A DNA stretch of 62,351 nt, counting the filler, from Bdellovibrionota bacterium (GTDB lineage: Bacteria; Bdellovibrionota; Bdellovibrionia; Bdellovibrionales; JAEYZS01), in the NCBI GenBank assembly GCA_963169515.1. It is 5 parts of 5 records of this genome, joined end to end, with 100 filler letters (N's around TTAATTAATTAA, not from the genome) between each part and the next. Parts side by side here need not be neighbours in the genome. Positions count along the whole stretch, not along the records: positions 42,370 to 52,506 come from CAUJEF010000047.1; 4 more parts are not named here. One strand, given 5' to 3'. Position 1 is the first letter of the stretch; every line of letters begins with the position of its first letter. A model generated the notes under the pieces. The model saw only the letters and a program-made list of their open reading frames with translations. It was not told the origin of the DNA and searched no databases. Made by a program: the position numbers and the translations under genes. Shown one piece after another: positions 22,205-58,722 of the stretch.

Positions 22205-22304
22205 NNNNNNNNNNNNNNNNNNNNNNNNNNNNNNNNNNNNNNNNNNNNTTAATTAATTAANNNNNNNNNNNNNNNNNNNNNNNNNNNNNNNNNNNNNNNN
22301 NNNN
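22205..22304. other. Artificial contig linker
   Basis: N44-TTAATTAATTAA-N44. Confidence 0.98.
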
Positions 22305-36412: not shown

Positions 36413-37390
36413 CTAAGCGACTTTTTTGTCCTTTGAAATTACAATTTTTTGTAAGGCGACAAATATTTCCTTGCTAAATGGCTTACCCATAATATTGTGC
36501 ATATGGTATACGGCATGGTCTGCAAATTTGGGATCCGGATTAGATGGCGATGCCATAATTAAATTACAAAACGTATCTGCTACACCAACCACTCGCGCAA
36601 GTGGATGGATTTTGGTGTCCCAAAGCTTACGCGGGAATCCCTGCCCAATTGCATTTTCGTGGTGCTCATAAGCGATCTTAATAATGTCTTCAGGCATATC
36701 ATGAATTGCCTGCAAAATCATCATTCCCCGGTATGGGTGGGACTCATATTCTCTGATCTCATTTGCAGTCATTTCAATCCGTGGTTTTTTTAATATCTCG
36801 GGAGCGATTTCCTTTTTTCCAATATCATGAAGGATTCCACCCAAGGCTAATTTTTCAAGAGTGTCTTTTCGAACCCACTGCAATTCTTTTGCAATTAATA
36901 TCGACGTATAGCCGACGGCAATCGAGTGTCGAACAAATTCATCGGTGATATCATTTAGCCCGACCAAAAGTTTCAAAAGATCCGGATGCGTTTCAATAAG
37001 ATTAATCACATTCAAAGATATCTCTTTTGCAGAGTTCAGATTTTGTGGATTAAGCCCTACGCGATCCAAGTCATCAAATACTGAGTTCATCACGCTCGAA
37101 AGTATGGCGGATTTTCGATAAACTTCGATCTTTTCATTTTTCATAATAATTCCAGCGACGCTCACCTGCTGCTTTAAAAATGTTGGATAGTCGCTTTGCC
37201 TGACGTAAAGGCTTTTTAGATTGTGCCCCTGGTACCGCTTCAATTGATCAAGCTCGAAAGACTCTCCACCCTTTGTCAGTAAAACAAAGTTCCCTTCGGA
37301 TAATTTGATAAATACGTCCACTTCGGTTTTAAGCCCCGAAATAAAGCGCTCCAATGGTATTGCAACTAGGTCGCGAGGGTCGAAATACAT
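36413..37390 (-). CDS. HD-GYP domain protein
   Basis: HS, LHDIGK, HP..G, HHE..GQGFP, VAD. Confidence 0.9.
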   Translation of the reverse strand: MYFDPRDLVAIPLERFISGLKTEVDVFIKLSEGNFVLLTKGGESFELDQLKRYQGHNLKSLYVRQSDYPTFLKQQVSVAGIIMKNEKIEVYRKSAILSSVMNSVFDDLDRVGLNPQNLNSAKEISLNVINLIETHPDLLKLLVGLNDITDEFVRHSIAVGYTSILIAKELQWVRKDTLEKLALGGILHDIGKKEIAPEILKKPRIEMTANEIREYESHPYRGMMILQAIHDMPEDIIKIAYEHHENAIGQGFPRKLWDTKIHPLARVVGVADTFCNLIMASPSNPDPKFADHAVYHMHNIMGKPFSKEIFVALQKIVISKDKKVA

Positions 37391-42269: not shown

Positions 42270-42369
42270 NNNNNNNNNNNNNNNNNNNNNNNNNNNNNNN
42301 NNNNNNNNNNNNNTTAATTAATTAANNNNNNNNNNNNNNNNNNNNNNNNNNNNNNNNNNNNNNNNNNNN
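42270..42369. other. Artificial contig linker
   Basis: N44-TTAATTAATTAA-N44. Confidence 0.98.
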
Positions 42370-42510
42370 CCCTTGCGATACCAAAACATCGAATTCTCGA
42401 AGTTTCATGATCGCTTGTTCTGTCGTATATTTAACTCTGGACATATTTCGCCTCCCTTTTCCTTGTATCACAGCCTTATTGGGCTGGACTAGTTTTTGGG
42501 GGGCAGGTCA
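42370..42510 (-). mobile_element. IS3-family (IS407-like) element, left end and start of OrfA, cut by contig end
   Basis: Minus-strand terminus TGACCTGCCCCCCAAAAACTAGTCCAG; GGGAGG RBS; ATG 42444 encodes MSRVKYTTEQAIMKLREFDVLVSQG. Confidence 0.85.
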
Positions 42511-42511
42511 G

Positions 42512-42607
42512 TTGGCCTTCGCAATCACCCCTGATTACCTCCGTGACTACTCTCCCCCGACATACGGTGGAAAGTAGTCACGGAGACGGGGTGAAAGCTA
42601 CGGCCAA
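42512..42607. repeat. Long imperfect inverted repeat (extended hairpin)
   Basis: TTGGCC..TCACCCC..CTCCGTGACTAC...GTAGTCACGGAG..GGGGTGA..GGCCAA. Confidence 0.85.
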
Positions 42608-42706
42608 AAAGATAAAAGATCGGAGGAATATCAAATGAAGTAGTTAGTTGAAGGATAGGAAAAGTCGGAGGGGAAAAGAATAAAAATTTTAAACGGAGCA
42701 ATAGAA

Positions 42707-42847
42707 ATGGATATTGAAATCAATCCTATTGCGATCCAGCTAAAACACTATAATCAAAATATCGCAAATTTAATTGAACACCTGCTGACGCTTGACCAAG
42801 AAATGTTCGGAGCCGATAAGGACCATGATCCGAAGGGGGCCGCATGA
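42707..42847 (+). CDS. 46-aa ORF translationally coupled to the recombinase
   Basis: GGAG RBS; MDIEINPIAIQLKHYNQNIANLIEHLLTLDQEMFGADKDHDPKGAA; ATGA overlap at 42844-42847. Confidence 0.6.
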   Translation: MDIEINPIAIQLKHYNQNIANLIEHLLTLDQEMFGADKDHDPKGAA

Positions 42848-44535
42848 AGAAAATTGCCTTATACATTCGCGTATCGACTGAAGAGCAAGCCAGAGTTCAA
42901 GATGGTTCGCTTGTTTCACAGCGAAAGCGCTTAGAAGAATATGTCGACGGACAAAACCGCCGGGACCACGGGTGGGGCCAGATCGTCGATGTTTATGTTG
43001 ACGAGGGGCGGTCTGCCAAAGACATGAATCGCCCTGAGTTCCAAAGACTCCTAAGCGACGTTCGCACAGGCAAGATCAATTTGATTCTTTCAACTGAGCT
43101 TTCTCGTATGTCGCGTTCGATCCGTGATTTTTGTGACATCTGGGATTTATTTAAAAAACATAACGCTAACTTCATCACGCTCCGTGAGCAGTTTGATACG
43201 ACCAGTGCCGCTGGAGAGATGATGGTCTTTAACCTTATCAACTTTGCGCAGTTTGAGCGCAAGCAAACGGGTGAAAGAATTGCTGCCAATTTCAAGTCGC
43301 GTGCCGAGCGAGGGCTTTGGAATGGTGGGCAAATCCCGCTTGGGTACAAGCGGGATTCTAGTCATGCAGGGCGCTTGGCCGTTCACCAGAGAGAATCAAA
43401 AATAGTAAAACTCATTTTTAAGCAGTTCTTGAAGACAAGGAATTTGCGAGACACCTGCATCAAGCTTAGTGAACAGGGTTTTAGGACAAAGAAATACACC
43501 AACTCCAAAGGTAAGGAAGTTGGTGGCAACTATTTCACTGTTCAAAGCCTTCATCATCTTTTAACCAATGCCACTTTTGTCGGGCAACGTGAGATCAATA
43601 AAAAGCGGGGCGACTTGAGACTTGTAAAAGCCTCTTGGCCTGGGATCATCACAAAGTCTGAGTTCGACAGTGTTCAAAAGCAGCTTCTTAAAAACAAGCG
43701 CCGCTTTAAACCTGATGACTGGAAAACATATTCTTACCCACTAACGGGCCTCGCCGTATGTGGCGAGTGCGGCAAAACCCTTAACGGCAAGTCTGCTCAC
43801 GGTAAAACGCAAAAGCATCACTACTACGATCATCCACGCACATTGCGCGGTGATGGCCTTGGGCACACTCATAAGTGTCGCATTCAGCGATTGCGCGCGC
43901 CTAGAGTTGAAGAAATGGTGCTCACCCAACTTAAAACACTTCTATCTGATCCTGCTAAAATCAACGAAGCTGTGGCGATCTACCACAGGGCTAGAAGTAA
44001 AAATAAACCCATTGAGCTTCATGGCTTAAGAGTCGTAACTGATGAATTGAAATCTCTTGAAACAAAGCAGTCAAACCTCATCGCTCGAATTTCTGAGCTG
44101 CCTGCGAAAGTTTCAGCTGAACCTTTTTATAAACAGCTCTCGCTCGTTCAAGAGCAAATCAATGAGCGCGCACGCCTTAAAGAAAATCTACTGACCCAAT
44201 CAAGAGAAGCTGAAAATGCTAAAGTGTTACCTGCTAACATCACCCTTAGAATTCAGCGCACAGTTGAGGCGCTAGAAAAAGTTCCAGTCGCCAAACAACG
44301 TAGTATTTTCGAAAACCTGATCCAATTTGCTGAATTTCATCCGAATAAACTAAGACTTGGCGTCTATACAACTGCGGGGGCTGCGAAAAGCAGCTCTCGA
44401 TTTCAAACAATCGTGGGTTCGCATACTATCAAAGTTGGCGGAGAGGGTGGGATTCGAACCCACGTTACGCTTTCACGTAAACACGCGTTCCAGGCGTGCG
44501 CCATCAACCACTCGGCCACCTCTCCCCGGACATAG
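42844..44535 (+). CDS. Large serine recombinase (integrase); 3' end reads through tRNA-Ser antisense
   Basis: YIRVSTEEQ catalytic Ser, RPEFQRLL, LSRMSR, PLGY recombinase domain, CGECG Zn ribbon, coiled coil. Confidence 0.93.
   Translation: MKKIALYIRVSTEEQARVQDGSLVSQRKRLEEYVDGQNRRDHGWGQIVDVYVDEGRSAKDMNRPEFQRLLSDVRTGKINLILSTELSRMSRSIRDFCDIWDLFKKHNANFITLREQFDTTSAAGEMMVFNLINFAQFERKQTGERIAANFKSRAERGLWNGGQIPLGYKRDSSHAGRLAVHQRESKIVKLIFKQFLKTRNLRDTCIKLSEQGFRTKKYTNSKGKEVGGNYFTVQSLHHLLTNATFVGQREINKKRGDLRLVKASWPGIITKSEFDSVQKQLLKNKRRFKPDDWKTYSYPLTGLAVCGECGKTLNGKSAHGKTQKHHYYDHPRTLRGDGLGHTHKCRIQRLRAPRVEEMVLTQLKTLLSDPAKINEAVAIYHRARSKNKPIELHGLRVVTDELKSLETKQSNLIARISELPAKVSAEPFYKQLSLVQEQINERARLKENLLTQSREAENAKVLPANITLRIQRTVEALEKVPVAKQRSIFENLIQFAEFHPNKLRLGVYTTAGAAKSSSRFQTIVGSHTIKVGGEGGIRTHVTLSRKHAFQACAINHSATSPRT
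44412..44464. mobile_element. Putative hybrid att junction at tRNA 3' end
   Basis: CGTGGGTTCG (44412-21) and CGAACCCACG (44455-64) inverted, centred at 44438 in the CCA. Confidence 0.65.
44436..44525 (-). tRNA. tRNA-Ser(GGA)
   Basis: GGAGAGGTGGCCGAGTGG...CACGC-CTGGAAC-GCGTG, long variable arm, GTTCGAATCC, CCTCTCCGCCA. Confidence 0.97.
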
Positions 44536-44633
44536 AGCGCAAATAATTTTCAATAGTTATAGTGCAATTGATTGACTATTGGAATTAAAAAATGGACAGG
44601 CGGAGAACAAAATATCAGAGCCCATGCTTTCGA

Positions 44634-45392
44634 TTACTGTTTTTTTAAGAGCCGTCTAAGAAGAAAATAGTAATTATGAGGCATGAGCTCTCCGTACGAG
44701 GAATTACACATTAACGAATGCATTAGGCAGTCCATTTTTCCTGAAATGGTTTGATATTCATCCCCCAAACCGAGCATATGCCCAAGCTCGTGTGCAAAAG
44801 CGATAGAAGACCAATCCCTTCCCCAATTTGTATCATAAGGGCCGCGAGTTGAATCCAGTACGTTTACAGAATAGTGCGCTTCCGCCTTGTTTCTGACAAA
44901 CTCAAACTTAAAGCTGTAAGAAAAGTCTGTAGGGATACGGCGTAAGTTCCATAGATCTTCGGCCTGTTTGATTCGGTTGTTGAAATTCCACCAGTCCACC
45001 TCGGTTGCATTTTTGAGATGGATTTTAATCGAAAACACGCGGCGGCCGTCCTTCAACATTAAAATATCATGAATATACTTCCTGGGGAAAAAACCAGCAT
45101 AAGTAATCTTGCCTTCGATTCTAGTGATTGTAGAAAGATTTTGGTTCTTAATCATATCCGGGTGTGGAAAAGTTTTGTAAGAGTCTTTGGTATGCACTGA
45201 AAAACTTTTTTCGGCTCGAGAGGGATTTTCTTGCTGGTCCGCCACCGGCATAATTATTTCATATAACCAACGCAGATCTTCGGGGAATCGTTCTACAGAC
45301 TCGAATTCAGTTGATGAAGGTTGAGCATAATCTTCTACCAATGGTTCCGCTTGTACAAAAACAGTTAAAAATGCCAGAAGTAACAGCACCAA
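44634..45392 (-). CDS. Secreted zinc metalloprotease-like protein
   Basis: Signal peptide; AHELGHMLGLGDEY, SLM Met-turn; GGAGG before TTG. Confidence 0.8.
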   Translation of the reverse strand: MVLLLLAFLTVFVQAEPLVEDYAQPSSTEFESVERFPEDLRWLYEIIMPVADQQENPSRAEKSFSVHTKDSYKTFPHPDMIKNQNLSTITRIEGKITYAGFFPRKYIHDILMLKDGRRVFSIKIHLKNATEVDWWNFNNRIKQAEDLWNLRRIPTDFSYSFKFEFVRNKAEAHYSVNVLDSTRGPYDTNWGRDWSSIAFAHELGHMLGLGDEYQTISGKMDCLMHSLMCNSSYGELMPHNYYFLLRRLLKKQ

Positions 45393-52506: not shown

Positions 52507-52606
52507 NNNNNNNNNNNNNNNNNNNNNNNNNNNNNNNNNNNNNNNNNNNNTTAATTAATTAANNNNNNNNNNNNNNNNNNNNNNNNNNNNNNNNNNNNNN
52601 NNNNNN
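52507..52606. other. Artificial contig linker
   Basis: N44-TTAATTAATTAA-N44. Confidence 0.98.
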
Positions 52607-58622: not shown

Positions 58623-58722
58623 NNNNNNNNNNNNNNNNNNNNNNNNNNNNNNNNNNNNNNNNNNNNTTAATTAATTAANNNNNNNNNNNNNNNNNNNNNN
58701 NNNNNNNNNNNNNNNNNNNNNN
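58623..58722. other. Artificial contig linker
   Basis: N44-TTAATTAATTAA-N44. Confidence 0.98.

Follow-up and report, generated by a model that had tools for sequence, protein, structure and literature searches.

Large serine recombinases, such as those of Listeria A118/LI, TP901-1, SPbeta (SprA), phiC31 and Bxb1, share a domain order in which the zinc ribbon carries an inserted coiled coil, and their targets are protein-coding genes. Excision by serine integrases requires a separate protein, the directionality factor. In mycobacteriophages that display integration-dependent immunity, the phage attachment site (attP) lies within the repressor gene, and integration into a transfer RNA (tRNA) gene, carried out by a tyrosine integrase, changes the C-terminus of the repressor, with loss of a degradation tag. 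Attachment sites within the integrase gene itself have been described for tyrosine recombinases of the types found in Myxococcus phage Mx8 (IntP/IntX) and the fusellovirus SSV, whose open reading frames (ORFs) extend across attP in such a way that integration creates a new gene 3' end (PMC4383910 and PMC6070905, in the portions available), and the available portion of Hudson 2015 (PMC4383910) gives tyrosine-family integrases as the only ones known to target tRNA and transfer-messenger RNA (tmRNA) genes. The locus that is the subject of this work lies in a 62,351-nucleotide (nt) stretch of DNA, here called the window, from a Bdellovibrionota bacterium (assembly GCA_963169515.1), and consists of the gene of a large serine recombinase (int, the integrase) whose reading frame runs through an entire tRNA-Ser(GGA) gene in the antisense direction. 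Our preferred reading, to which we assign a probability of roughly 0.8, is that positions 42370-44535 represent the right end of an integrative element, on the attR side, and that its enzyme belongs to a clade of serine recombinases that use tRNA or tmRNA 3' ends as the bacterial attachment site (attB), with an ORF that spans attP and a C-terminal tail that is passive.

When set beside the systems described above, the window integrase retains the domain order of the large serine recombinases, including the zinc ribbon with its inserted coiled coil, as well as an attP-type junction of approximately 50 base pairs (bp) in which, judging from sequence only, the attB half-site has its outer motif displaced 5 bp towards the centre; in addition, a small neighbouring protein is predicted to sit at the base of the coiled coil, as is stated for known directionality factors (PMC11722253, accessible part). 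Unlike those recombinases, however, its clade targets tRNA and tmRNA 3' ends, carries copies of the T-loop sequence in both attP arms, and has an int ORF that crosses attP with a context-dependent C-terminus; a disordered extension of approximately 50 residues follows the last folded strand. The location of attP within the integrase coding sequence and the change in the gene 3' end upon integration are shared with Mx8 and SSV; these are nevertheless tyrosine recombinases with long identity segments, whereas the present enzyme is a serine recombinase with a shared core of at most 7 nt, and while the SSV gene is split in two, only an unstructured tail is exchanged here. As in Islander-type islands, the tRNA or tmRNA target is rebuilt by the element and tandem arrays occur at one tRNA, but the Islander signature, a sizeable displaced tRNA fragment, is absent, at most 7 nt being shared at the left junction (attL) of the related genome G054. 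The alteration, through tRNA integration, of the C-terminus of a protein whose gene holds attP recalls mycobacteriophage immunity, although no conserved tag is visible in the tails of the present clade.

The literature searched, which mostly excludes subscription journals, yielded no description of serine integrases with a tRNA attB or with attP inside int; TIGER/Islander and ProBord may hold unnamed cases. The large and widespread clade of serine integrases on tRNA and tmRNA genes contradicts the working rule of Hudson 2015, as worded in the available part of PMC4383910. The chief interest of the locus resides in this clade of serine integrases, which land on tRNA and tmRNA ends and may do so by reading the T-loop.

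The integrase gene and the convergent tRNA gene

The integrase ORF (42844-44535, plus strand) encodes a large serine recombinase of 563 amino acids, which was also modelled with AlphaFold2 (AF2). Pfam places a Resolvase domain (PF00239) at residues 5-158 with an E value of 8.9e-33, followed by Recombinase (PF07508, residues 183-284) and Zn_ribbon_recom (PF13408, residues 299-364), while the Phage_integrase domain of tyrosine recombinases was not found in the integrase by Pfam; these assignments agree with an earlier note on this DNA, which had called the gene a serine integrase from its sequence alone. The PHROG 95 integrase profile matches residues 1-506, and residues R9 and S11, invariant in an alignment of 37 sequences, are both present in the window protein. 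The closest solved chains are those of the TP901-1 and SPbeta integrases. In the AF2 model the coiled coil (residues 370-458) consists of long paired helices (370-418 and 426-458), the final strands occupy residues 493-498 and 503-507, and the fold is ordered up to approximately residue 512.

ARAGORN identified the tRNA-Ser(GGA) gene on the minus strand (44436-44525); it encodes its CCA, and all 7 bp of its acceptor stem are intact. The two genes converge, and the integrase frame reads the whole tRNA in antisense, reaching its first in-frame stop (TAG, 44533-44535) 10 nt past the tRNA 5' end; the C-terminal peptide of the ORF is GGEGGIRTHVTLSRKHAFQACAINHSATSPRT. The integrated form of the enzyme thereby carries a host-encoded tail (44443-44535 including the TAG, plus strand) that corresponds to residues 534-563 (EGGIRTH...SPRT). 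The earlier note had proposed precisely such a head-on arrangement, with no stop before the junction, a stop 8-10 nt beyond the tRNA 5' end and approximately 32 residues from the tRNA complement and its flank, and the sequence bears it out: the frame is open until the TAG, and the tail wholly encoded by the host tRNA, at 30 residues, differs from the suggested length by two. For a single tRNA such an open frame is no rarity: as a chance baseline, 9 of the 29 tRNAs of this genome are open in antisense in that frame. A Logan contig from a run belonging to a different study displays no differences from the window over 43746-44461, which indicates that the open frame is not specific to this assembly. 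This contig enters the tRNA by only some 21-25 nt, which is below the 31-nt bridging rule, and a piece bridging the junction with 31 nt on each side was not among the listed contigs of four runs, in which tRNA-like contigs of many organisms pile up at 44410-44543.

The same architecture recurs well beyond the window. The 120 best homologues share 47-86% identity with the window enzyme, and the few that are named are labelled Bdellovibrio or Bdellovibrionales; in 116 of them the ORF reaches a motif, G-S-x-T-[IV]-x-x-G-[GA], that is encoded by the element's arm of the attachment site (103 by regular expression and 13 by eye), and nearly all 120 end in antisense tRNA peptides read in one fixed frame. 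Within the order, 159 of 384 genomes carry an integrase match at E <= 1e-30. Three sets of loci were compared (the 30 best, 20 distant and 79 at the species level, with one genome per species); given the partial overlap of these sets and the relatedness of the genomes, the counts are a measure of spread and not of independent events. Among the 30 best loci, the int 3' end overlaps a tRNA on the opposite strand in 21, with Leu (13), Ser-gga (5), Ser-gct (1), Met (1) and Asp (1) as targets, the remainder either running off the contig (3) or having no tRNA call (6). More distant recombinases (34-46% identity) end in a tRNA in 11 of 20 cases, involving Arg, Leu, Met, Gln, Val, Gly and Asp. At the species level the loci are labelled as being of Bdellovibrionota type except for a few from Bacillus, Paenibacillaceae, Tumebacillus, an archaeal bin and an Obscuribacterales bin, and the int stop falls inside an opposite-strand tRNA (45) or tmRNA (3) in 48 of 79; eight others run off the contig, and 23 have no such call, several of them with tRNA-like tails. 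A single frame is shared by 45 of these 48 loci, so that the fixed-frame overlap of the family lies far beyond chance, and the targets span at least 11 amino-acid specificities in addition to tmRNA. As far as can be judged from sequences, targeting of tRNA and tmRNA 3' ends with ORF read-through is thus a clade trait of Bdellovibrionota, common to many related integrases of these predatory bacteria. The survey of homologues for tRNA-derived tails that the earlier note had recommended therefore finds them widely; the arrangement it singled out as its best candidate for an undescribed system is real, but it is a trait of a large clade and not peculiar to this gene.

In the wider family, the tmRNA-ending recombinases L116, L151 and L153 employ the same frame.

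The attachment site and the boundaries of the element

Comparison of empty and occupied sites provides a means by which to define the element boundary. Three same-genus genomes (G026, G042 and G038) harbour an identical tRNA-Ser(gga) and right flank, with unrelated DNA directly after the tRNA 3' end and no element, while in the occupied counterparts G028 and G023 an integrase is located at that tRNA 3' end and the left flank of the empty site is found again 6.2 kb (G028) and approximately 14 kb (G023) upstream. In G054, attL, 13.1 kb upstream of attR, has a B arm with homology to the flank of the G042 empty site; TGGCGGA comes next, and then the P' arm. This provides an attL/attR/attB trio and an element of 13.1 kb. 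In the family of the window genome, all six other genomes carry tRNA-Ser(gga) with an encoded CCA, unrelated 3' flanks and no P arm. Two metagenome contigs, L179 and L181, are letter-identical in the P arm and int 3' end and cease to match past TGGCGGA; together with the G054 trio, this bounds the crossover to these 7 nt, which correspond to 44436-44442 in the window. Sequence comparison consequently supports the location of attP within the 3' end of int and a tail that changes with the integration context. Both proposals had been put forward in the earlier note, and the empty sites, the G054 attL, the divergence of L179 and L181 and the P-O-P' junctions discussed below argue for attP inside the recombinase gene, the last two also furnishing the other tails expected if integration replaces the C-terminus.

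The contig L181 also displays, at positions 621-660, an element that adjoins a tRNA-like minihelix with an acceptor stem and T arm and with neither a D arm nor an anticodon arm, a configuration that hints that acceptor and T arm alone could suffice as target.

In the window, the element-supplied P arm of attR spans 24 bp (44416-44439, plus strand) and encodes G525-G532 (G-S-H-T-I-K-V-G), residues 525-533 deriving from the P arm of the element. It begins with a T-loop look-alike, GGTTCG (44416-44421, plus strand), where GGTTCGA is the T-loop copy, and also provides the CCA and the discriminator of the tRNA. The predicted central dinucleotide, GG at 44440-44441 (codon G533), is followed by the B' half-site (44442-44460, plus strand), which is made up of the host tRNA acceptor and T arm, with the T-loop motif TTCGAACC at 44453-44460. 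The 20 nt that precede the tRNA end (cgtGnGGTTCGnnnACTnTnnnnAnT, followed by TGG) are conserved at the DNA level including third codon positions, and GGTTCG begins 20 nt before the tRNA end in the junctions compared. Four junctions without a tRNA, of the P-O-P' type (L010, L027, L035 and L123), carry the inverted motif TTCGAAC 22 nt after the T of TGG, and thereby delimit a 50-bp site, symmetric at its ends and centred on nt 5-6 of the tRNA 3' end; it is from this symmetry that the central dinucleotide was predicted. The TTCGAA offset is 22 in the four distinct P-O-P' junctions and 17 in tRNA junctions, which places the tRNA T-loop motif 5 bp nearer the predicted centre than the P' copy. In serine integrases, attP exceeds attB by about 10 bp, and the zinc-ribbon motif, at positions 16-24 of attP half-sites, is displaced 5 bp inwards in those of attB (Rutherford 2013, available part of PMC3783163), and the T-loop offset in the window is the relation between attP and attB half-sites that this rule would lead one to expect. 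The T-loop motif is presumably recognized by the zinc-ribbon domain, and 44440-44441 is most likely the exact crossover pair.

P-O-P' junctions are, at least in part, tandem arrays. In L069 (G215:C117, reverse strand, ~15606 and 19840), a P-O-P'-type junction is located 4.2 kb upstream of an attR at tRNA-Leu(gag), and this pair would be a very small tandem element.

These observations can be assembled into a mechanism in which attP overlaps the last int codons, the P arm doubling as coding sequence and recognition DNA. Of the final 7 nt of the tRNA gene, within which the strands are exchanged, 44440-44441 is the most likely pair; the element brings its own CCA, discriminator and first acceptor bases, by which the tRNA is rebuilt. 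As int has no stop before the crossover, its frame continues after integration into host DNA, where it runs antisense to the tRNA; a TTCAA T-loop provides a TGA 22 nt in, at which the frame ends. The zinc-ribbon domain would read the T-loop sequence. That the assembly has just one tRNA-Ser(gga), whose acceptor stem is perfect, argues that the element does rebuild it. An enzyme without a long identity segment could in this manner restore its target through a crossover in the last bases combined with a CCA end of its own, and the recognition logic suggested is one in which the zinc ribbon reads the T-loop while both attP arms copy its sequence 5 bp further out. As no genome lacks tRNA genes and serine integrases act without host factors, enzymes of this clade may serve for DNA insertion without a prior landing pad.

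A number of observations weigh against this interpretation of the locus. The attL of the window element is not in the assembly, where blastn with 44300-44620 returned other tRNAs and short chance matches only, so that the other junction, which the earlier note had proposed to locate, was not found. A scan of the assembly for P'-type patterns gave 52 loose matches, the closest of which (C145) was inspected and rejected as an attL, since it falls within a 509-residue ORF and its contig has a topoisomerase-like gene at the end. With no more than TGG or GG in common with the tRNA end, and a P' motif that is degenerate or shifted in register, the attL sites of G028 and G023 fit poorly and could not fix the crossover; a candidate attL in G267 was likewise not accepted, since it mismatches the core at two of six positions and may be a chance match, such patterns being frequent. 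A centre on nt 5-6 predicts a palindromic GC core at Leu-type sites, which is unusual for serine integrases, and the exact crossover pair is for this reason a prediction. Finally, the variable linker between the last folded strand and the P arm holds no stops in 773 codons from 23 loci, compared to 21 and 45 in the other two frames, which indicates that translation up to the attachment site is under selection and sits uneasily with a wholly passive C-terminus.

Searches for further parts of the element gave the following results. Blastn over the whole assembly detected no second copy of the tRNA part in this genome, and tblastn with 47 ORFs from the neighbourhood of the G283 integrase matched only int. 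The exact 23-nt P arm of the window element had no matches in the metagenome scan, and a degenerate P-arm pattern identified three metagenome loci.

The C-terminal tail, the upstream micro-protein and rival readings

Residues 513-563 are predicted by AF2 to be disordered, with predicted local distance difference test (pLDDT) values below 50. Tails beyond the crossover are unrelated between loci, in integrated and P-O-P' states alike, and among the 120 homologues their length beyond the motif ranges from 0 to 75 residues. The frame stops at a T-loop TGA, 22 nt into the tRNA, in 26 of 48 targets compared with 15 of the 29 tRNAs of this genome, all 29 of which encode their CCA; tail length is thus what tRNAs give by themselves. 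The long tail in the window results from a tRNA-Ser T-loop that reads TTCGA and not TTCAA, leaving the frame open for 30 codons. Taken together, these features suggest a tolerated, disordered appendage and not a tuned device. Upstream of the crossover, Leu-type linkers have the motif KATGTDG in common.

A conserved, translationally coupled micro-ORF of 46 codons (42707-42847, plus strand) directly precedes int, its stop overlapping the int start (ATGA), and in all 30 related loci an ORF of between 44 and 104 codons has its end at the start of int. No Pfam or PHROG family was found for its product, which in an alignment of 27 copies displays the shared pattern IEI..I.I...EYN......LLEID. Complex prediction of the micro-protein with residues 295-512 of the integrase gave a score of 0.82, with 0.00 for the best control, a mark reached by 116 of 157 solved complexes and by 2 of 215 mismatched pairs; between runs, 93% or more of the contacts recur, and the micro-protein has a pLDDT of 76 or higher. 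The predicted contacts involve integrase residues 358-384, 466-494 and 501-512, at the base of the coiled coil, and the disordered extension begins at residue 513, right after the last of these. Since known directionality factors are described as binding the coiled-coil base (PMC11722253, available part), the micro-protein was named a candidate directionality factor, and the model suggests that it is probably one that binds at this site.

The proximity of tail and predicted docking site lends itself to other interpretations. The earlier note had considered the junction a built-in integration-state switch. On such a reading, exchange of the P'-encoded tail for a tRNA-encoded one, together with head-on transcription from the tRNA, would alter the activity, stability or directionality of the enzyme, which would then act differently in the prophage and in the free element, as is reported for Mx8 IntP/IntX. 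The tail does vary with context, selection keeps the frame to the attachment site open (no stops in 773 linker codons), and the disorder starts directly after the modelled contacts of the micro-protein; precedent is offered by an extreme C-terminal element of the SprA integrase that is reported to affect directionality (Abe 2021, cited in the part of PMC11722253 available) and by Mx8, in which attP lies within int and integration alters the integrase (PMC6070905, available part). The Mx8 enzyme, however, is a tyrosine recombinase with a different mechanism, no peptide is conserved past the crossover in either state, and tails that extend from 0 to 75 residues beyond the motif, that match random tRNAs in length (26/48 against 15/29) and that are predicted to be disordered speak against a switch. 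The switch as originally worded is not supported, given a tail that is predicted to be disordered, unconserved and of a length at the tRNA background; a tolerated appendage is at present the likelier account, and we regard the switch as unproven and improbable. A related notion, which we consider a shade more doubtful, is that the clade keeps the frame open across attP on purpose and that the extension, located beside the docking site of the micro-protein, senses context, its end being rewritten whenever an element integrates, excises or inserts in tandem, and in this way biases the choice between integration and excision. The clade represents a natural system in which to test the role of the far C-terminus in the control of serine-integrase directionality.

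Two further alternatives concern the element itself and not its tail. The window copy could be an immobilised, decaying or domesticated relic, a matter of present activity that is compatible with the origin proposed above and that we hold to be possible but rather unlikely. Upstream of int the contig breaks off after 474 nt, within an ORF that appears to resemble an insertion-sequence gene, and of the genes near the G283 integrase only int has a counterpart here; the elements of G028 and G023, at the same site and 82% identical in their shared part, have a degenerate attL, as expected of old insertions. On the other hand, the 563-codon ORF is intact and retains the alignment-invariant R9 and S11, the micro-ORF and P arm are intact as well, and the missing part may reflect nothing other than a break in the assembly, a draft of 173 contigs. 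Genes for tRNAs are found on some phages and islands, and as the element boundary is not visible in the window alone, the tRNA could conversely belong to the element, in which case the overlap would say nothing on the integration site. This idea is already contradicted by the same-genus genomes, which for the G028-type element have the same tRNA and right flank without integrase, by the six of six family relatives whose tRNA-Ser(gga) lacks a P arm, by the single tRNA-Ser(gga) of the assembly, and by targets that span no fewer than 11 specificities and tmRNA; we give it hardly any credence. An element that integrates at tRNA and tmRNA 3' ends, with a passive tail, is thus the reading that we retain.

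Neighbouring genes and contig context

The window is composed of five draft contigs (C44, C46, C47, C51 and C60) joined by artificial linkers, N44-TTAATTAATTAA-N44, at 22205-22304, 42270-42369, 52507-52606 and 58623-58722. The integrase contig is 10,137 bp long and begins at 42370, with 474 bp present upstream of int; nusB and the other genes to the left of 42270 are therefore not neighbours of the integrase. At its left end the contig holds the N-terminal 34 codons of an ORF on the minus strand (42370-42471, starting MSRVKYTTEQAIMKLREFDVLVSQG) that is cut by the contig end. We take this ORF to resemble OrfA of the IS3 family, which Pfam did not confirm, no Pfam match being found for it, and blastn and tblastn revealed no second copy of this contig end in the assembly. 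Upstream of the micro-ORF lies an inverted repeat of 47 nt (42539-42585) that could form a hairpin. An ORF-like reading over it (…SSHGDGVKATAKK…) recurs at the peptide level upstream of the micro-ORF in locus L014, and the region may be a conserved control region. A promoter scan of 42370-44900 gave no sites where 3.3 were expected, and is uninformative. On the host side, the gene beside the tRNA (44634-45392, minus strand) displays a weak match, under the Pfam cut-off (E 5e-4), to the HExxH catalytic region of immune inhibitor A (M6) peptidases.

At the species level, the G283 integrase, with 73% identity, is the nearest relative of the window enzyme. Behind int in G283 lies a second element, in tandem with the first. 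Its genes encode a tyrosine integrase, a helicase, a VapE-like protein and another, distant serine recombinase (L068:15086-16753, plus strand) that reads, in another frame (…WRRGRDSNSR…), into a tRNA-Ser(tga) located next to serS (approximately 36641-36730 of the joined L067+L068 region). A gene of the Replic_Relax family lies directly upstream of the micro-ORF and int both in G028 (L057:4136-4960) and in G283 (L067:18664-19440), and for this reason they have the look of small integrative elements, replicating or mobilisable, and not of phages. A BrnT/BrnA pair is also present in G283.

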